Assembly: GCA_022508305.1 (NCBI GenBank)
Contig: JAFLVM010000001.1
Location: forward strand, 125,347 to 189,346
Length of the DNA: 64,000 nt
DNA from: Clostridiales bacterium
Lineage (GTDB): Bacteria > Bacillota > Clostridia > Christensenellales > CAG-314
Direction: 5' to 3'
The position numbers were made by a program, and so were the translations under genes. The number at the start of each line of letters is the position of its first letter. Positions within the stretch are counted from its first letter, which is position 1. The notes under the pieces were generated by a model. That model ran no database searches. It was not told the DNA's origin and saw only the letters and a list, made by a program, of their open reading frames with translations. Positions 7,549 through 49,200 of this stretch are shown in pieces.

Positions 7549-8470
7549 TTTCACAAATCAAGACGTAATGAAACTCCGTGAGCAAACTGGCGTTGGCATG
7601 ATGGACTGCAAAAAGGCGCTTGTTGAAACTAACGGTAACTTTGAAGAAGCAATCAAGTACCTTCGCGAAAAGGGAATGGCATCCGCTGCTAAGAAGGCAA
7701 GCCGCGTTGCCGCAGAAGGTCTTGTAAAGTGCCTTGTATCTGCTGACAAGAAAACGGCAGTTGCAGTAGAAGTAAACTGCGAAACCGACTTCGTTGCAAG
7801 AAGCGAACAATTCGTTTCTCTTGTTGACAAAATTGCTGCTATTATTCTCGGTTCAAACGCAAAGACGGTAGAAGAAGTACTTGAAGTATCCTGCAAGGAA
7901 TGCGGCAAGACGGTTAACGTACTTATTGCAGAGGCTACTGCAGCTATCGGTGAAAAGATTTCTCTCCGCAGATTTACTAAATTTGCATTGAAGGGTAACG
8001 GACTTATTTCCAGTTACATTCACATGGGCGGCAAGATCGGCGTTTTGGCAGAGCTCAAGAGCGACGCTAAGCAAGAAGATCTGCAAGAACTTGCATTCAA
8101 CGTTTGCATGCAAATTGCAGCAAGCAAACCGCAAGTTGTTAACATTGCCGACGTTGACGCAAGCCAACTGGAAGCTGAAAAGGAAATCTTGACCGTTCAG
8201 GCAAGAAACGAAGGCAAGCCCGAAGCAATTATCGGCAAGATGGTAGAAGGCCGTATTCACAAGTACTACAAGGAAGTTTGCTTGCTCGAACAAGAGTACG
8301 TACGTGATTCCGCTTTGTCCGTAAAACAGGTTGTTGCCGACACCGCTAAAAAGCTTGGCGCTGACATCACCGTTACGAGATTCGTTCGTTACGAAATGGG
8401 CGAAGGAATTGAAAAGCGTGTTGACAACTTTGTTGACGAGATTGCAGAACAACTCAAGAACATTAAATAA
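7541..8470 (+). CDS. tsf: translation elongation factor Ts
   Basis: [22 protein letters not shown]-like N-terminus. rpsB-tsf synteny. Confidence 0.97.
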
Positions 8471-9243: not shown

Positions 9244-9322
9244 TGATAATAGCGAATTATTCTTGAATTTTACTTTGTTTTGTAGTAAAATAACTTTATA
9301 GTAAATTGTATTGGAGGGTGTT

Positions 9323-10103: not shown

Positions 10104-10789
10104 TGAAAAACGTTCCTACACACGTAGCGATAATAATGGACGGCAACGGACGTTGGGCAAAGAGTAAAGGTCTCGCAAGGCTGCACGGTCACAAGCGCGG
10201 CTTGGACGTTGCCGAGCGAATAATTGACCGTTCGCTTGCCGTTGGCGTTAAGTACCTGTCGTTGTACGTCTTTTCTACGGAAAATTGGAAACGTCCCGAG
10301 TCGGAAGTAAACAACCTGTTTTCGTTGGCGGACAGATATCTTAGCCAATTTGAGAAGTTTTGTAAGGACAGAATTCGCGTTGTTGTGTCAGGCGAGCGAG
10401 AAGGATTGCCCTCAAAACTTGTGGAAAAAATTGACAAAATTCAACGCGAAACTTCTAATTTCAATGCAATTTGTGTAAATTTGTGCATAAACTACGGCGG
10501 ACAAAGGGAAATCGTCGAGGCTGTCAAGGCATTGAATAAAAAGGGCGAAGAAATCACCGTAGAGGGCATAAAAGACAATCTCTACAATAAGTTACCCGAG
10601 CCGGACGTGATAATTCGCACGGGCGGACAGAAGCGACTGTCCAACTACCTGCTTTTCCAAAGTGCTTACTCGGAACTGTTCTTTTCCGACACGCTTTGGC
10701 CTGATTTTACAACTGACGAGTACGATGGTATTTTGCAAGAATACGAGCACCGTACTCGCAATTTTGGAGGAATAGATGGCGCTAAATAA
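10103..10789 (+). CDS. uppS: undecaprenyl (isoprenyl) diphosphate synthase
   Basis: HVAIIMDGNGRWA and FSTENWKRP motifs. Confidence 0.96.
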   Translation: MKNVPTHVAIIMDGNGRWAKSKGLARLHGHKRGLDVAERIIDRSLAVGVKYLSLYVFSTENWKRPESEVNNLFSLADRYLSQFEKFCKDRIRVVVSGEREGLPSKLVEKIDKIQRETSNFNAICVNLCINYGGQREIVEAVKALNKKGEEITVEGIKDNLYNKLPEPDVIIRTGGQKRLSNYLLFQSAYSELFFSDTLWPDFTTDEYDGILQEYEHRTRNFGGIDGAK

Positions 10790-11783
10790 AAAATCTTTGC
10801 TTAACCGTGTGTTGGTGGGCATAGCGATTTTTATTGTAATGCTTGGAATGATATTGCTAAATATCTTTTTCACTAACTACGTAGGTGGAGAAGATACTTT
10901 TGTCAGCGGCAGAGCAATCAACTCGGTTATTATTTCCGTGCTGATTTTGCTGTCGGTTATTGAAATGCGCAGAGCTCTCGGCAAGGACAGGATTCCCGAC
11001 TGTTTCAGTTGGCTTTTGTGGCTTTACGCTATTGGAATTATGCCCGTTTACAGTCTGTTTGGCTTCATGGGTATATTGTTCTTCTCGTTGATTGTGTTTA
11101 TTGTTGCGGTGCTAACTGCAATGTTCCGCAACCGCGCAGACAGTCTCATATACATAGCTTTCATGCTCGTTTACCCCGGATTGTTCATGTCAACGTTGTT
11201 GTATCTCAACCGCGCCGAGGCAACGGGCAACTACACGCAATATCTCTACATAGAAAACGATATATGGGTGTATTTGAATGAGTTGTTAGGCACGAAACAC
11301 TCGGTAAGCTACCTGCTTCCTTTAAACGCCCTTGCTTTGGCGTTGGTTTTTTCCGTTTCTACTTTTACCGACACCTTCGCTTATTTTGTCGGCGGACTGT
11401 TCGGCAAACACAAGCTGTGTCCCGACATAAGCCCCAAAAAGACTGTCGAAGGAGCGATAGGCGGAGTTTTCGGCGGCTTAGTAGGTTCTGCGATAGTGTA
11501 TCTGATATTCGACTATTCGCAACTGTTTGGCTATGGAGAACAGTTTGGATTGTCATTTATGGGACTCAAATGGTACTACGTGATGCTAACGTACCTCTTG
11601 ATTGGTCTATTAGGCTCCGCAGCAACGCAAATAGGCGATTTGCTTGCAAGCATGGTCAAGCGCTACTGCGGAATAAAAGATTACAGCAGATTGCTGGGTG
11701 AACACGGCGGAATAATTGACAGGTTGGATGGCATTATGCTCAACTCCGTACTTGTTTCCTTTGTGTTTATGTTCATTTTGTAA
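10776..11783 (+). CDS. cdsA: phosphatidate cytidylyltransferase (long N-terminal membrane extension)
   Basis: C-terminal SPKKTVEGAIGGVFGG and GDLLASMVKR motifs. Synteny after uppS. Confidence 0.9.
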   Translation: MALNKKSLLNRVLVGIAIFIVMLGMILLNIFFTNYVGGEDTFVSGRAINSVIISVLILLSVIEMRRALGKDRIPDCFSWLLWLYAIGIMPVYSLFGFMGILFFSLIVFIVAVLTAMFRNRADSLIYIAFMLVYPGLFMSTLLYLNRAEATGNYTQYLYIENDIWVYLNELLGTKHSVSYLLPLNALALALVFSVSTFTDTFAYFVGGLFGKHKLCPDISPKKTVEGAIGGVFGGLVGSAIVYLIFDYSQLFGYGEQFGLSFMGLKWYYVMLTYLLIGLLGSAATQIGDLLASMVKRYCGIKDYSRLLGEHGGIIDRLDGIMLNSVLVSFVFMFIL

Positions 11784-12883: not shown

Positions 12884-14178
12884 ATCTGCTTTGCGATTTC
12901 GCATCGGTAATGAAAACAATAGGCTACGTTTTGTTGGCGTTTGTAGTACTCATGGTAATGGTACTCATCCACGAAACGGGTCACTACACCGCAGGAAAGC
13001 TGTTGGGATTTCAAATAAATGAATTTGCAATCGGAATGGGTCCCAAAATTCTTTCCAAAAAGAAGAAAAACGGCGAAGTTTTTTCGCTGCGTTTGCTGCC
13101 GCTCGGCGGTTTTTGCGCATTTGAGGGGGAAAACGACGAGGTGGAAAACCCCAAGGCATTCAACAGACAAAAGCCTTGGAAACGCCTTATCGTGTTATTT
13201 TCCGGCGCCTTTTTCAACTTTGTGTCGGCTATTCTAATTGCAATTATCGTATTTTCGGCATACGGCGAAACGGTAGTAGTTGTGAACAACGTGTACGAGT
13301 ACGCTCCCGAGGCAAACTACCAACAAATACAAAGCGGTGACGTAATTTACAAGGTTAACGGTAGGCGCGTCTACATATTGGACAGCCTGAGTCGCTACTT
13401 TACCGATGATGAAATGACTTTGACAGTGCTTCGTCCTGACTGTGTAGACGAGAACGGCAACACGGTGTACGTTGAGAAAACGTTGACTAACATAACGCAA
13501 GGCACCTTTACTACTTTTACTCTTACCAAAGTTGACGGTAATTTTGCAGATGCAAACAATCGCAAATTGAAGGTTGGCGATACGGTATACAAAATAAACG
13601 ATCGGTTGATTTGTCAAGCCGACGACTGGGATGAAGGGTTGAATGCGGTTGGCGACACCTTTACGCTGACTGTGACCGACGGCGAGCATTATTACACCTA
13701 CGAGATGGCAAAAAGCTATTTTAACAGCGATATCGTTGCCGAACCGCAGGCGTATACAGGCATCGCAATGTCCATTCACTACGACAAATTCAAGTTTGGA
13801 TTTGGTGAAGTGCTGATTCGAGTCGTACCTTACTGCTGTGAAGTGGGAATGCTCGTTTTGCGTACTTTAGGAGGATTGTTAACAGGCGCGGTAGGTATTG
13901 AAAGCGTTGGTGGACCAATTACCACCATAAGCATGACTACGCAAATCGTGTCTACGGGCTTTGCAAACGTCTTGATGCTGATAGTGCTTATTTCCGTCAA
14001 CCTTGCAGTGTTCAACCTGCTGCCCGTACCTGCGCTTGACGGCTGTCAAATGGTGTTCGTCATTATCGAATGGATTGCGGGCAAACCAATCAACAGAAAG
14101 GTTCAGTCCTACATCAACGGCATAGGACTTGTAGTATTGATAGTGTTAATGTTGTTGATAGATATACTAAAACTATGA
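12877..14178 (+). CDS. rseP: RIP (site-2) zinc metalloprotease RseP/RasP
   Basis: HETGHY and NLLPVPALDG motifs with a central PDZ-like region. Confidence 0.92.
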   Translation: MLNLLCDFASVMKTIGYVLLAFVVLMVMVLIHETGHYTAGKLLGFQINEFAIGMGPKILSKKKKNGEVFSLRLLPLGGFCAFEGENDEVENPKAFNRQKPWKRLIVLFSGAFFNFVSAILIAIIVFSAYGETVVVVNNVYEYAPEANYQQIQSGDVIYKVNGRRVYILDSLSRYFTDDEMTLTVLRPDCVDENGNTVYVEKTLTNITQGTFTTFTLTKVDGNFADANNRKLKVGDTVYKINDRLICQADDWDEGLNAVGDTFTLTVTDGEHYYTYEMAKSYFNSDIVAEPQAYTGIAMSIHYDKFKFGFGEVLIRVVPYCCEVGMLVLRTLGGLLTGAVGIESVGGPITTISMTTQIVSTGFANVLMLIVLISVNLAVFNLLPVPALDGCQMVFVIIEWIAGKPINRKVQSYINGIGLVVLIVLMLLIDILKL

Positions 14179-41538: not shown

Positions 41539-42648
41539 ATGAAGAAAAATTTACCCATTTTCGTAGCTATATTATTGTTACTTGTTGCAGTGTTTACGGT
41601 GTTTTTTGTTGCGCGTAATGGCATGACCCAAACTGTCAGCACCAAGTACGTTGCGTCCAATCAGGACTTAGGCGGTTTCATTGGTGACGTCAGCGACTTG
41701 TTCGTGAATGGCAGTAGTTCAAAAATCAACGAGGAAGTGTATCTTGGCGGTTATCCTTTAGGTATCACCATTGACGGTGACGGCGTTACCGTAATTGGAC
41801 TAAACGAGTTTGTTGCAGCAGATGGCACGCTTTGTTGTCCTGCGCTAAATGCGGGTATAGAAATCAACGACGTAATAGTGGAGTTAAACGGCAGGAAAAT
41901 TTACGGTTCTGCCAAGCTTTCCGAAATTGCTGCAGGTTCAAACGGACAAGAGTTACCGCTTAAATATCTGCGACAGGGCGTTATGAAGGAAACGACGATT
42001 ACGCCCGTAAAAGATTTGACGTCAGGACAATACCGTCTTGGACTGTGGACGCGAGATTCTTCCAGCGGCATAGGTACGTTGACTTACGTTAGAAAAAACT
42101 TGAAATTCGGTAGCCTCGGACATCCTATTACCGACGCAAAGGGTTCAATCATCACATGCAAAAACGGCGGCGTGTTTGACTGTACCATTGACGGTATCGA
42201 AAAAGGACAAAAGGGCGCGGCTGGTGAACTCAAAGGCGGTTTTTGTTTTGACAGGCGTATAGGCAACATTTACGCCAACAACAAGTTCGGCGCGTTTGGC
42301 ACATTCAACACGCTTCCGCAATTTTGCGACAACGCGATAGAAGTGGCAGATATAAGCGAAATCAAGCCCGGTAAGGCGCAAATTTACTGCACGCTGGGCA
42401 GTGAAGGTCGCAAGTGCTACGACATAGAAATCGTCAAGGTGACCCCGCAAAGCTCACGCGATGACAAGGGCATGGTTATTCACGTAACAGACCCCGAGCT
42501 TTTAGAAAAAACCGGAGGCATAGTGCAGGGTATGAGCGGCAGCCCAATCGTTCAAAACGGCAAGCTTGTAGGAGCTGTAACCCACGTGTTCGTCAACGAC
42601 CCGACACGCGGCTACGGCATCTACGCCAAGTGGATGATGACTAATTAG
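41539..42648 (+). CDS. spoIVB: SpoIVB signalling serine peptidase (S55)
   Basis: N-terminal TM helix, PDZ-like region, and catalytic GMSGSPI. Position after recN. Confidence 0.93.
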   Translation: MKKNLPIFVAILLLLVAVFTVFFVARNGMTQTVSTKYVASNQDLGGFIGDVSDLFVNGSSSKINEEVYLGGYPLGITIDGDGVTVIGLNEFVAADGTLCCPALNAGIEINDVIVELNGRKIYGSAKLSEIAAGSNGQELPLKYLRQGVMKETTITPVKDLTSGQYRLGLWTRDSSSGIGTLTYVRKNLKFGSLGHPITDAKGSIITCKNGGVFDCTIDGIEKGQKGAAGELKGGFCFDRRIGNIYANNKFGAFGTFNTLPQFCDNAIEVADISEIKPGKAQIYCTLGSEGRKCYDIEIVKVTPQSSRDDKGMVIHVTDPELLEKTGGIVQGMSGSPIVQNGKLVGAVTHVFVNDPTRGYGIYAKWMMTN

Positions 42649-42650
42649 AT
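42610..42650 (+). repeat. left copy of the direct repeat (functional spoIVB 3-prime tail, GYGIYAKWMMTN*)
   Basis: 35/41 nt identical to 47038-47078 by hand alignment. Confidence 0.8.
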
Positions 42651-42792: not shown

Positions 42793-42821
42793 GTCAGACT
42801 TGATCTGACCTTTTTGTTTTT
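42793..42821 (+). terminator. intrinsic terminator inside the island's left arm (serves spoIVB in its present context)
   Basis: GTCAGA-CTTGA-TCTGAC hairpin followed by CTTTTTGTTTTT. Confidence 0.6.
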
Positions 42822-43108: not shown

Positions 43109-43140
43109 TTTATTAAAATAACTCGTTATTATTTGGAGGA
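43109..43140 (+). promoter_or_regulatory. left arm of a 32-nt perfect inverted repeat: palindrome AATAAC-TC-GTTATT plus SD GGAGGA
   Basis: TTTATTAAAATAACTCGTTATTATTTGGAGGA ends 3 nt before ATG 43144. It is the exact reverse complement of 46954-46985. Confidence 0.85.
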
Positions 43141-43143
43141 CTT

Positions 43144-43521
43144 ATGTGTATTGAGGTTGTTTCAAAGTACGTATCAACAATATATTACATTTTAATGTTT
43201 ACAATAAGTGCAACAACTTTAGCTATAGCCATTGTTAAACTTTTCCCTAAAATAAAATGTCGATATAACGTGGCAAATAATAATGGACAAGATGGAATAG
43301 ACATCTATTTTATTAACTTACGTAGCAGAACTGTTATAATAGATAAAATTAAATTTGTCCAAGAAGGTAATGTTATTAATATCAAACATGTGTCAAACTG
43401 CAAGATTATATCTCAACAAGACGCGAGATATTTTCAGCAAGTAAATTTCTCTGATAATTATATAAAAGTTATTGTAGAGGACATTGAGGGTAATAAATAT
43501 GTTGCAAAAAGAATCAAATGA
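43144..43521 (+). CDS. 125-aa single-pass membrane protein, unknown family
   Basis: SD GGAGGA. TM helix YILMFTISATTLAIAIVKLF followed by a beta-rich soluble part. Overlaps the next gene by 23 nt. Confidence 0.7.
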   Translation: MCIEVVSKYVSTIYYILMFTISATTLAIAIVKLFPKIKCRYNVANNNGQDGIDIYFINLRSRTVIIDKIKFVQEGNVINIKHVSNCKIISQQDARYFQQVNFSDNYIKVIVEDIEGNKYVAKRIK

Positions 43522-45952
43522 AAACATTACATCTATAGTAGACAGAGAATTACAAAAAGCAAAAATTAATGAACGAATTAGGGAATCGGTGACAACAGAT
43601 GCGATACTTATCGTAAATGAAAATGGCTCAGGTGCCAGCTATTTTGTTAAAACCGTATGCGGTAAAGAAAATATATTTTATATAAAAAGCGATTATACCG
43701 GAAAATTTGTACAAAGTTTATTTAAAGCAACTTTTGCTTGGGATAAAGTCGGCTTTTTTAACTTTGTAAAATTGAGAGAAATTGAAAACGAAAAATGCGA
43801 ATTAATTGATACTAATATCAATTTTACGGACAATGATCGTCTTTTGATAGAAAAATTTATCAATCTTTTCAACAATCAAACAACTTTAACCTATCGTTCG
43901 GCATTAGACAAAAGATATCATATGAACTTGGAAAGTATAGTTATAGATTATCTCAAACAATTGCCAACGAGATACATTGTATACAACCATTTCGAAACAG
44001 GATCGGAATGTGAAATGGTCAATTCTTTTATTCAACAAGTTGATAATAAAATACATATAATTGTTGCAAACTCTTGCGAATATTATCAAAATTTTGAAGC
44101 AGAGAAAATTGAAATTTATAACTTTAATAAAAACGAGAAAAACTATTTTAAAGAGTTACTCAAGAGATTGGTGCCAATTATAAGTGAAACTGTATTGTCC
44201 ACTCTTGCTGAAGAATTGTATGATATATATAAAGGTTCACCCGAGAATTTAGTGGAACTAATAAATAATTGTCGTGACGAAATACATAATTGTACAGAAG
44301 ATGAAGAAATAGCCGAGGCGATACGTGATAAATATAATTCGCGTAATAATATAATTGAAAAAATAATAAACAAACAAATACTTTCTGTTCTATATTTATC
44401 AAGGACTCCGTTAGAATATAAATTTGTTGCTAATCTAATATGTTCTCAATACGGCATCAGTCAAGTTAGATTTGAGGAACATTTGAGCGAACTTACGAGT
44501 TGCGGATATGTAGAGATTAATTTTAACGATCTTTTCATATCTAAGCAGTCTAATAATTATTTTACACTGAATGTTGTTAGTACCAGAGAAGAAAGTATAA
44601 AACTATGCTATCAAGTTTTGTCGCTGATCAACCGTTGTGATAACGTTGACAAACAAACAAACGCCGATGCTATAAAATTGATATCCAATATTCTGTTAGA
44701 CTTAAAACATTCTGGGATAGAGTTTGATGGCATTTATTACGAACAAGTAAAAAGATATGCAGACTTTTTGCGTAACTCACACGATTTATGCACTGCATCG
44801 GAGTACTATGCTTTATGCTCAGATAAAATAAACAATATTCCATATTGTGAAATTCTTGACATTGCAAAAATACTGTACAATTACGGTTATTACACAGAGT
44901 GTTACAAACTTTTAGTTGGAAATTCATTTGACATGTTATCAAATGAAATTCAATTTGAACGTTTTTTATTAATTGCAAACTGTGAGACCGTCGGAAATAA
45001 TAATATAGCCATTCAATATTATGAAAAAGCAATTAATTTACACACAAAAAAACAGTTGATTGCTATTGGTGGCAAATTCCTTGCGCAAGGCGAGTCCAAA
45101 ATTGCTAATCGTACAATTCTAAATCAAGAGTATGAAAAATGTGTTGCAAAATATGAAGATAAACCAGATACAATAGGATATGTTGCCTTGCTTAGAAATG
45201 CCTTGGACTTTCAAAACAACGAGACAGCAATACAAACTATGCAAAGGGGTCTTGAATTAGCAAAAACCCAATGTTTGCAAGAAGAAATTTACAAAATTCA
45301 ACAAAATCTTGCTTTAAATTATATTAAGGCTGGTCAATATGATTACGCAGAGAAATTGTTGCAAATGGTACTTGCATACTGCGAAAAAAAAGTACGAAAA
45401 GATACGTCATATCCACTGATTAATCTTGCCGTAGTTAATTTGTATAAATATTTTAATTGCCAAAATTACGAATATGCGTTAAATGCTATGGAATATGGAC
45501 GTAAAGCTATTTCTTATGCTTGTTCATATTACTCTCGCACACTATCCAATTTGCAATATTTAACTGCGCTATCGGTATTAAGCAGTTGTGAAAATAACCC
45601 ATACAATATATCTCATAATCGTATAGTATCATTGCGTGAAAAAATATATGAGGATATCATAAAAAACAACAATAGAAATGACTTCAGAGTCGTTGTGCGC
45701 ACCTATCTGTCGTTAATTGCAAGTGCCAATATTTGTGGCGATTTTGAGGCTGCTAAAATATACCTGCGTGAGCTATACTCAAGACAATATAACGAAATCG
45801 GTAGAGAGGCATGTAAAGTTAACCTTTTGATACGTCAATTACAAATGGACGATTTAGAACCCATGCTTGAGCCGACAATAGATAAAAGCTGTGAAAATTA
45901 CCACAAGGAAATAAGATTTGAGCCATGGATGATCAGCTTAACGCATTATTAG
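43499..45952 (+). CDS. STAND/NB-ARC-like NTPase (degenerate Walker motifs) + winged-helix-like segment + C-terminal TPR-like repeats
   Basis: SD GAGGG lies 8 nt before ATG 43499 (TTG 43484 is also possible). Motif order and spacing, numbered from the 43484 start: NENGSGAS (res 45-52), RYIVYNHFE (163-171), HIIVANS (191-197), GSP (250-252). This is followed by about 450 aa of helical Y/A/L/N-rich repeats. Confidence 0.75.
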   Translation: MLQKESNENITSIVDRELQKAKINERIRESVTTDAILIVNENGSGASYFVKTVCGKENIFYIKSDYTGKFVQSLFKATFAWDKVGFFNFVKLREIENEKCELIDTNINFTDNDRLLIEKFINLFNNQTTLTYRSALDKRYHMNLESIVIDYLKQLPTRYIVYNHFETGSECEMVNSFIQQVDNKIHIIVANSCEYYQNFEAEKIEIYNFNKNEKNYFKELLKRLVPIISETVLSTLAEELYDIYKGSPENLVELINNCRDEIHNCTEDEEIAEAIRDKYNSRNNIIEKIINKQILSVLYLSRTPLEYKFVANLICSQYGISQVRFEEHLSELTSCGYVEINFNDLFISKQSNNYFTLNVVSTREESIKLCYQVLSLINRCDNVDKQTNADAIKLISNILLDLKHSGIEFDGIYYEQVKRYADFLRNSHDLCTASEYYALCSDKINNIPYCEILDIAKILYNYGYYTECYKLLVGNSFDMLSNEIQFERFLLIANCETVGNNNIAIQYYEKAINLHTKKQLIAIGGKFLAQGESKIANRTILNQEYEKCVAKYEDKPDTIGYVALLRNALDFQNNETAIQTMQRGLELAKTQCLQEEIYKIQQNLALNYIKAGQYDYAEKLLQMVLAYCEKKVRKDTSYPLINLAVVNLYKYFNCQNYEYALNAMEYGRKAISYACSYYSRTLSNLQYLTALSVLSSCENNPYNISHNRIVSLREKIYEDIIKNNNRNDFRVVVRTYLSLIASANICGDFEAAKIYLRELYSRQYNEIGREACKVNLLIRQLQMDDLEPMLEPTIDKSCENYHKEIRFEPWMISLTHY

Positions 45953-46950
45953 ATTTTAAGACGTGCATTTACTGTCTTTAATAAGATGTCGATAAAATCC
46001 TTAAAGCTTATACCAATTAATTTACAAACTTCGCCCACATCGCTATTTTCACCGATAGCCGGCACGGTATTTGCTTCTAACAAATAAAACTTACCGTTGT
46101 TATAACGAAAATCAAGTCTAGCATAATCTCGAAGTCCCAAATGTTTAAAAACCATTTGGGATATTTGTTTTAATTCTTCAACTTGAGTTGAAGATATAAG
46201 ACATTCTGGGGCAACATACACTCTACGATGAAGCGCCTTAATTTCTGCATCGCAAATCTCTTTATCCAAGTAGAATTTACTATCAACACCAATGGCTAAT
46301 GGTTGATTGATCACAATATTTTCGTTGCCAACAAGAAAAACGGTAAATTCAAAACCAGAAATATATTCCTCAATCAAAATTGTTTTAAACGTTTGCGATA
46401 ACTTCTCAAGCTGCTTAAGCAAACTTTTCATATCATGACATAACGACTCCGCATCAATCCCTATGGACGAACCTTCATTATTGGGTTTTACAATGACAGG
46501 AAAGTTAAATTCACATATTTCATTTGGTAATTTGCCATTGCCAAAATACAATATACTACGTGGCACATTGGCATCAGTTAGCACGTGCGCCAATTTGTTT
46601 GTACAATATTTATCACTTACTAAAAGTGAAGCAAAAGCATCTGAGCCAGAAAATTTATCTGTTATTATTTCCAAAAGTATAGGAGTTTGTCCGCGCTTGT
46701 GTTGTTGTGTTAAACCATCATTAAAATTCAAGAAAACGCAATTATCGTATTTTTTGTTCTGGTTTACAGCTTCAATTAGTTTATCAACTCCACCATAATA
46801 CTCACAATCGTACCCCAATGAATTGATTACTTTAACAATTGCATCTATGTTTGCTTGCTTAAAATGGTCATTGTATAAAATGCCATTTCCTAAATAACTT
46901 TTGAATTTTTCTCTACAATCGCATACTACGTAGTACTTTGTTCTATTCAT
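45949..46950 (-). CDS. D-alanine--D-alanine-ligase-like ATP-grasp enzyme (atypical N-terminal domain)
   Basis: PVIVKPNNEGSSIGI, ILIEEYISGFEFTVFLVG and YARLDFRYNNGKFYLLEANTVPA motifs. The same SD and leader as gene 43144. Confidence 0.85.
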   Translation of the reverse strand: MNRTKYYVVCDCREKFKSYLGNGILYNDHFKQANIDAIVKVINSLGYDCEYYGGVDKLIEAVNQNKKYDNCVFLNFNDGLTQQHKRGQTPILLEIITDKFSGSDAFASLLVSDKYCTNKLAHVLTDANVPRSILYFGNGKLPNEICEFNFPVIVKPNNEGSSIGIDAESLCHDMKSLLKQLEKLSQTFKTILIEEYISGFEFTVFLVGNENIVINQPLAIGVDSKFYLDKEICDAEIKALHRRVYVAPECLISSTQVEELKQISQMVFKHLGLRDYARLDFRYNNGKFYLLEANTVPAIGENSDVGEVCKLIGISFKDFIDILLKTVNARLKI

Positions 46951-46953
46951 TTT

Positions 46954-46985
46954 TCCTCCAAATAATAACGAGTTATTTTAATAAA
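46954..46985 (-). promoter_or_regulatory. right arm of the 32-nt perfect inverted repeat (palindrome + SD) before the ATP-grasp gene
   Basis: Exact reverse complement of 43109-43140. A TATAAT (minus strand, plus coordinates 46992-46997) lies just upstream. Confidence 0.85.
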
Positions 46986-47037
46986 AAAATAATTATATTT
47001 GAGAATTTTTTTACAGATAAACACTTGTAAAGTTATC

Positions 47038-47078
47038 GGTTACGGCATCTACGCGAAATGGATGCTTACGAATTAGAT
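47038..47078 (+). repeat. right copy of the direct repeat: orphan spoIVB 3-prime tail fragment (GYGIYAKWMLTN*)
   Basis: It is in frame over 13 codons plus the stop. Five codons differ from the left copy and four of those changes are synonymous. No homology to spoIVB upstream of it. Confidence 0.8.
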
Positions 47079-48975: not shown

Positions 48976-49200
48976 TATTATAAAGAAATAATAGCATATA
49001 TAAAACACAATTCAAATGAGTTCAAATATCCGTTAGACGATATAATATATGTTATGTCTGCTGTAGAATATCGAAACTAACGAGTTATTGTAACGCGTTG
49101 CCTAATTTGACACCTGTTTTTGTAATAATGAATATTTACAGCGCGCGATGTCAACACTTCAACCAAACTGCAATGACTTTATTGCTAAAAGGAGATAGGT

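Follow-up and report, generated by a model that had tools for sequence, protein, structure and literature searches.

Why should two unrelated transcription units that run towards each other carry exactly the same leader? The question is raised by a 64,000-nt stretch of a Clostridiales bacterium genome (contig JAFLVM010000001.1; hereafter the window), where a 32-nt sequence stands directly in front of a unit encoding a small protein and a large STAND-type nucleoside triphosphatase (NTPase), and again, in perfect inverted orientation, in front of the gene for a D-Ala-D-Ala-ligase-like ATP-grasp enzyme. An earlier reading made from the letters of the window (the sequence-only reading) had taken the repeated leader for a shared operator imposing strict co-regulation on both units, perhaps through the large protein, then given as 820 aa. 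Comparison with related loci leads us, with high confidence, to a different answer: the two arms appear to be the paired inversion sites of a family of invertible gene cassettes, represented here by a cassette of 3.9 kb. The elements on which the argument turns are the following:

43109-43140, + strand: left inverted-repeat arm (TTTATTAAAATAACTCGTTATTATTTGGAGGA), putative inversion site and entire 5′ leader of the unit encoding the 125-aa and 817-aa proteins
46954-46985, − strand: right inverted-repeat arm, putative inversion site and entire 5′ leader of the ATP-grasp gene
43135-43140, + strand: Shine-Dalgarno (SD) sequence GGAGGA, 3 nt (CTT) before ATG 43144
46954-46959, − strand: SD sequence GGAGGA, 3 nt (AAA) before ATG 46950
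43117-43133, + strand: recombinase-type core AATAA-CTCGTTA-TTATT, two 5-nt half-sites around a 7-nt spacer
46961-46977, − strand: copy of the core in the right arm, same motif as in the left arm

Direct reading and a repeat finder both bore out the geometry first described for this locus: the arms are 32 nt each, 100% complementary and separated by 3813 nt, all coordinates and the spacing to the ATGs hold, and the 14-nt dyad AATAACTCGTTATT is present in both (43117-43130 and 46964-46977). GGAGGA forms the terminal bases of each arm, the arms together with the ATGs match at 35 of 38 positions, and outside the arms the left and right flanking sequences are unrelated. The 32-mer occurs twice in the window, even with 3 mismatches allowed. 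A chance match or an assembly artefact, for which only the AT-rich composition speaks, deserves practically no weight, as no copy arose in 100 shuffles, the arms are also present in a Logan assembly made independently from another run, and the architecture recurs in dozens of lineages. The 32-mer could also have been a common dispersed repeat (a repetitive extragenic palindrome or a miniature inverted-repeat transposable element), but the count of two copies in the window, together with the absence of a 26-mer of the repeat from JGI metagenome contigs, speaks against this. Folding of the shared leader as RNA gave no structure (z about 0), and a riboregulator is therefore unlikely.

What the arms are becomes apparent from relatives of the cassette, for which we fetched about 90 loci (designated by L numbers) by looking up the encoding contigs and by one scan each of genomes and metagenomes. 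Homologues of the ATP-grasp protein number 585, and many are on contigs of only 3.7-4.0 kb. The recurring cassette pairs an ATP-grasp gene with a convergent gene encoding about 800 aa, which is often preceded by a small gene. Its hosts are gut Clostridia, Erysipelotrichales and Bacilli, and the loci examined came from human, animal and isolate genomes (Lachnospiraceae, Oscillospiraceae, Ruminococcaceae, Erysipelotrichales, Bacilli). The isolates include Lachnospiraceae 62-26 (L026), Faecalicatena faecalis (L029) and Roseburia amylophila (L019). Where the cassette is whole, it is nearly always bounded by an inverted repeat of its own, perfect or nearly so, with arms of 16-115 nt and a span of 3.5-5.3 kb. 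The distance between repeat and start codon ranges from 0 to about 840 nt across the family, and arms that reach through the SD sequence to the ATG are found only in the subgroup of the window (the window, L002-L010, L020, L094 and L095). The closest relatives of the window cassette show only about 58% ATP-grasp identity, and no close relatives were found in the viral contigs, curated phages and plasmids searched.

Direct evidence of inversion comes from an all-against-all comparison of these loci, which identified 23 pairs in which the cassette is collinear (99-100% identity) and both flanks are reversed (93-100%), with the change-over inside the repeats. These pairs make up eight sets of loci in opposite orientations:

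L003, L008 versus L006, L007, L009
L002 versus L004
L026 (an isolate) versus L123
L116 versus L117, L118, L120
L130, L132 versus L133, L142
L134 versus L135
L105 versus L104, L107
L099, L100 versus L145

Inversion between the arms would also explain the frequent recovery of these cassettes as orphan contigs of about 3.9 kb in assemblies. Many of the relatives' contigs of 3.7-4.0 kb terminate at the repeats. In one of them (L092, 3864 nt, from Logan), the repeat is 20 nt long, shorter than the 30 nt expected for k−1 if the Logan k is 31, as we take it to be, and the break hints at both orientations or at several flanks in that sample. A second Logan contig, L001, was considered as evidence of flipping and rejected; its ends keep 30 nt of the repeat, again presumably k−1, and the 32-nt repeat alone explains the break.

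A shorter element is conserved inside the arms. The core GATAA-N7-TTATC is common to the complete repeats of the family, with AATAA-CTCGTTA-TTATT as the window variant; xATAA-N7-TTAT is present in all complete arms, and nearly all have the half-sites GATAA and TTATC. A set of 43 arms yielded 39 distinct 7-nt spacers, and the spacer is the same in both arms of every locus. Tyrosine recombinases require identical crossover spacers in partner sites, and a spacer that varies between lineages but is matched within each locus therefore fits a tyrosine-recombinase crossover site; such co-variation is not what an operator requires. The proposal that the perfect identity of the arms reflects strong selection or recent exchange agrees with this rule. 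At L021, a 98-nt inverted repeat (7812-7909 / 13061-13158) contains two separate cores, GGATAATTCAAAGTTATCC and GGATAATCCACCGTTATCC, and L024 carries the cassette of L021 with only the inner 48 nt repeated. Judging from this arrangement, nested sites in L021 could permit more than one inversion or exchange product.

In the window, RATAA-N7-TTATY has three matches, two of which are the arm cores; the third is at 9245-9261, between pyrH and frr. A near-copy of the 14-nt dyad (1 mismatch) at 49076-49089, between deoB and hup, lacks the right half-site. Neither the near-dyad nor the third motif match has a partner or a similar context, and both are probably due to chance.

These observations bear directly on the operator. 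A regulator that binds the dyad in both leaders and thereby co-regulates the two units would account for the identical dyad and ribosome-binding context in front of both, and the large protein does match a Csa3-like region weakly (E = 0.007). However, conservation in the family follows the 5-7-5 core with its free spacer and not the 6-2-6 dyad; AATAAC-TC-GTTATT overlaps the conserved AATAA-N7-TTATT only because TTATT occurs twice in the window arm. The position of the repeat relative to the genes varies over the whole range given above, the arms of relatives are recombination breakpoints, and operators do not require perfect sharing of flanking and spacer bases. We therefore consider the shared operator very improbable, and with it the strict co-regulation that it was meant to explain.

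The sequence-only reading had also allowed that the arms might be terminal inverted repeats of a 3.9-kb cassette. This alternative holds to the extent that the cassette is a discrete, flipping unit that is also found in unrelated flanks; it fails insofar as a transposon is meant. Perfect terminal repeats do bound a discrete low-GC segment here. However, there is no transposase inside, the open reading frames (ORFs) encoding the ATP-grasp enzyme, the STAND NTPase and a small, presumed membrane protein. Nor is there a target-site duplication beside the arms (...ACGAAAGAG on the left versus AAAAATAAT... on the right) or a further copy in the window or in JGI metagenome contigs, and a transposon or an element resembling a miniature inverted-repeat transposable element is in our judgement hardly credible.

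In relatives, an enzyme that could act on paired inversion sites is encoded beside them. There, a tyrosine recombinase gene of about 300 aa, with the Pfam domains Phage_integrase and SAM_1, is found just outside one arm. The best matches of the linked recombinases are the XerC and XerD models, below cut-offs, and the enzymes form one lineage (45-87% identical among themselves). The idea of a serine recombinase failed on the same evidence, as the linked enzymes carry Phage_integrase and SAM_1 and match Xer models. The position of the gene was tallied for the 39 loci in which the repeat pair bears the core and each flank extends for at least 1.5 kb:

within 1.5 kb of an arm, ATP-grasp side: 17 of 39 loci
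within 1.5 kb of an arm, STAND side: 13 of 39 loci
2-3 kb away: 4 of 39 loci
none in the sequence examined: 5 of 39 loci, the window included

Counting both sides, 30 of the 39 well-flanked loci thus have a recombinase no more than 1.5 kb from an arm. At L096, which has only 300 nt of flank on each side, no recombinase was found in those flanks.

If the cassette flips, what would flipping change? In several relatives, a strong promoter abuts one arm and points inward: TTGAAA-17-TAAAAT in L003, TTGCAA-17-TATTAT in L002, TTGAAC-17-TATAAT in L020, TTGAAG or TTGATG-17-TAAACT in L010/L096, and TTGAAA-17-TATAAT in L116. The −10 element is TG-extended in all of these except L116. A flank promoter is probable in L134 as well (TGgTATAAT), and a hairpin terminator was identified on the opposite flank in at least three lineages (L003, L116 and L134). 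The corresponding features of the window, together with its genes, are:

43144-43521, + strand: gene of the 125-aa protein, first of unit B; ORF, 37% identity to the 146-aa gene of L003
43499-45952, + strand: 817-aa STAND-type NTPase with TPR repeats; 34% identity to the 803-aa protein of L003
45949-46950, − strand: 333-aa D-Ala-D-Ala-ligase-like ATP-grasp enzyme, unit A; Pfam Dala_Dala_lig_C, 4.4e-31
46992-47020, − strand: candidate outside promoter TTATCT-17-TATAAT, 6 nt from the right arm and aimed into the cassette; manual reading
42793-42809, + strand: terminator-like hairpin in the left flank, 300 nt before the left arm

In the window subgroup, the arm takes up all the room between the edge of the cassette and the start codon, so that no promoter fits inside and transcription must enter from the flanks. 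A flip would swap which unit faces which flank and leave the leader and ribosome-binding site of each unit unchanged; a single flank promoter would therefore be connected either to the ATP-grasp unit or to the membrane-protein/STAND unit, depending on orientation. The 817-aa and ATP-grasp genes are convergent and their stop codons overlap by 4 nt (45949-45952), which leaves no terminator between the units. Convergent-gene overlaps of 4-33 nt are also present in L003, L011, L012, L016, L019, L020 and L029. With no terminator between the two units, transcription that leaves the active unit should continue through the silent one in antisense, an arrangement that would reinforce either-or expression.

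The regulatory reading is in this way reversed: two identical leaders most likely mark units that take turns. Where one flank supplies a promoter and the opposite flank a terminator, alternating and not simultaneous expression is to be expected, and we favour it on balance for the two units. The candidate promoter at 46992-47020 was assigned by the match of its position to the promoters of L003, L002, L020, L010/L096 and L116, and the left flank has no convincing promoter. We infer that the promoter-swap logic would apply in the window genome too. Since the only good −10 is on the ATP-grasp side, the ATP-grasp gene is probably on, and the membrane-protein/STAND operon off, in the orientation found in the window.

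Taken together, the observations can be joined into a fuller model, which we advance tentatively. One outside promoter and a dedicated Xer-like invertase would make the STAND sensor operon and the Ddl-like ligase alternatives to each other, possibly as antagonistic states of one conflict or cell-envelope system; the sites would also exchange cassettes between genomes, and the window copy would be driven in trans. In the window itself, the sites may still be flipped, which would require a recombinase encoded outside the 64 kb.

Several points weigh against an active switch at this locus or against its regulatory logic. No member of the recombinase family was found in the 64-kb window, either by tblastn or with a profile hidden Markov model run over all ORFs of at least 60 aa. 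The exact window cassette is carried by only two contigs and was seen in only one orientation. The nearest relatives are only about 58% identical, and the evidence for inversion therefore comes by homology and not from the lineage of the window. The candidate promoter has a weak −35 and falls under the scan threshold. Promoter and terminator scans of the AT-rich window gave about as many sites as shuffled sequence, which is why conserved position and manual reading of the flanks were used instead. In some subfamilies the repeat is 80-840 nt upstream, so that promoters could sit inside the cassette, and the either-or logic may not extend to the whole family. Finally, the two units are strictly co-inherited, which would be odd if they were never expressed together. 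In the tblastn search, a weak recombinase match at 1165-1266 was rejected because it falls inside a GDPD phosphodiesterase gene.

Some of these points would be accounted for by a frozen switch, in which the arms descend from inversion sites but the recombinase has been lost, so that the cassette no longer turns and its arms are now nothing more than identical leaders. The lack of a recombinase in 64 kb fits this account, as does the single orientation resolved in the metagenome-assembled genome. The window is one of five such cases among the 39 well-flanked loci, and L031 offers a precedent, as it is collinear with L029 at 99.8% until similarity stops inside the recombinase gene. However, the window arms have kept perfect identity along all 32 nt, even in the outer 26 nt, for which no role in translation is obvious, and the search for a recombinase covered 64 kb of a 1.1-Mb contig. 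In addition, a recombinase need not be encoded next to its sites; in C. difficile, several switches at distant sites are inverted by RecV. Documented cases also include invertible regions with no recombinase close by (PMC9881135). Loss of flipping in the window lineage is thus a serious contender, to which we would assign somewhat less than an even chance.

The cassette may also move between loci. Cassettes of 99% identity were found in unrelated flanks, with identity ending exactly at the repeats (L021 versus L024, L010 versus L002), which suggests exchange of whole cassettes. The sites might then exist for this purpose, the cassette being swapped by double crossover and inversion arising as a by-product without regulatory meaning. 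The occurrence of the cassette and recombinase module in prophage-like, tRNA-adjacent and other contexts is consistent with this idea, and so is the strong divergence of the STAND genes (14-34% identity across the family). Exchange does not account, however, for the placing of a promoter and a terminator on opposite flanks, or for arms that make up the entire leader as far as the ATG in the window subfamily. The two orientations are, moreover, about equally common (17 versus 13), and exchange is compatible with an inversion switch and does not exclude it. As the main purpose of the sites we consider exchange unlikely, and we retain the paired inversion sites as the preferred reading.

Features of the wider locus also point to mobility. 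The repeats are inside a 4.4-kb island of 26-35% G+C, in surroundings of about 45-50% G+C, which follows spoIVB (Peptidase_S55). The island is bounded by a direct repeat:

42609-42650, + strand: left copy of a 42-nt direct repeat, current 3′ end of spoIVB and one island boundary
47037-47078, + strand: right copy, 86% identical, displaced spoIVB 3′ end and other boundary, 51 nt outside the right arm

Both 42-nt copies encode the spoIVB C-terminus GYGIYAKWM[M/L]TN, followed by a stop. To judge by their position and coding content, they resemble the attL and attR sites that an integrative element would leave on insertion into the 3′ end of spoIVB. The island has no integrase, despite these attL/attR-like ends. 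In L002 and L004, the module is beside phage structural genes, and the other side of L002 has a serine recombinase and a Rep gene. In L116, a second, unrelated tyrosine recombinase (10180-11364) is about 640 nt beyond the cassette. The module may travel as cargo of larger mobile elements. In L096, the cassette (59% ATP-grasp identity) is about 220 nt from an apparent tRNA gene ending in CCA (1-90, judged by eye).

The proteins of the cassette suggest what might be switched. The hydrophobic N-terminus of the 125-aa product suggests a small membrane protein; the product matched no family in searches that included Pfam, NCBIfam and PHROG. The 333-aa protein is matched by NCBIfam Ddl and Van ligase models, far below their cut-offs. 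For the 817-aa protein, a word-based homologue search returned only the query, and tblastn on the fetched loci recovered real homologues at 14-34% identity. In an alignment of the large protein (A2), 11 of 17 members matched ATPase_2 and others KAP, NPHP3_N, AAA_16 or NB-ARC, with TPR families too. The Walker A lysine is lost in the window protein and its nearest relatives: the window has GSGAS at residues about 40-55 in place of GxGK[ST] of relatives, and L003 also lacks the lysine. At residues about 215-225, the window protein has IVYN in place of the Walker B hhhD of relatives. Judging from these motifs, the window STAND subgroup may bind nucleotide without hydrolysing it. The best conserved part of the protein is its C-terminal tip (window 45920-45952; last 15 columns of A2), with the pattern F-E/D-P-W-x-I/L-S/T-x-x-H. 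A conserved, free C-terminus encoded beside an ATP-grasp ligase suggests that the tip could be a substrate of that ligase. In a search for known anti-phage defence with PADLOC 2.0, the cassette proteins reached only E = 0.007, and PHROG gave 0 matches.

Overall, these findings define a large and testable family of invertible cassettes. A literature search of incomplete coverage found no publication linking this cassette to inversion, and the defence catalogues searched contain no pairing of a STAND NTPase with a D-Ala-D-Ala-ligase-like enzyme. If such a pair is phase-variable, this would matter for phage defence or for variation of the cell wall in the gut. The site rule (GATAA-N7-TTATC with matched spacers), combined with a dedicated recombinase lineage, could be used to locate more switches.

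How does the cassette compare with known systems? The G segment of Mu and the C segment of P1, inverted by Gin and Cin, are about 3-4 kb long, with inverted repeats of about 30 nt, two opposed gene sets and a fixed outside promoter. The proposed cassette logic is similar in that the promoter is outside, two opposed gene sets are inside, and only the set facing the promoter would be expressed. However, Gin and Cin are serine invertases that work with an enhancer and Fis, whereas the cassette family is associated with a Xer-like tyrosine recombinase. In addition, the Mu and P1 repeats are inside coding sequence and swap homologous tail-fibre ends, whereas the cassette repeats are 5′ leaders and the units behind them are unrelated.

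In E. coli, the dif site (GGTGCGCATAA-TGTATA-TTATGTTAAAT) is a single chromosomal site with a 6-nt spacer that serves dimer resolution. The cassette sites resemble it in the inner core shape, ATAA-spacer-TTAT, and the linked recombinases have XerC and XerD as their top models (below cut-offs). Unlike dif, the sites occur as two inverted copies around an accessory cassette, with a 7-nt spacer and a dedicated recombinase lineage. Cre or Flp cassette exchange, an engineering method, uses inverted identical sites between which a cassette flips in place or exchanges between molecules. The presence of identical cassettes in unrelated flanks recalls this method, the natural counterpart of which would be the exchange suggested above.

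Host-associated Firmicutes commonly carry invertons of type I restriction-modification hsdS genes next to which a tyrosine recombinase is encoded (PMC7672463, PMC7096588). Like the cassette, they place a tyrosine recombinase beside a gene-carrying invertible region. However, the hsdS repeats are inside the hsdS coding sequence and inversion yields chimeric alleles, whereas inversion of the cassette would re-plug whole units to a promoter.

The RecV-dependent switches of C. difficile include flgB, cwpV, cmrRST and pdcB (PMC7446863, PMC9286219). They share with the cassette a host among the Clostridia, a tyrosine recombinase that inverts DNA between short repeats, and the prospect of ON/OFF heterogeneity. 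They differ in that a regulatory segment of a few hundred bp is inverted before one operon, whereas the cassette would flip 3.9 kb and alternate two units. RecV can act on sites far from its own gene, and this is the situation that the window would need.

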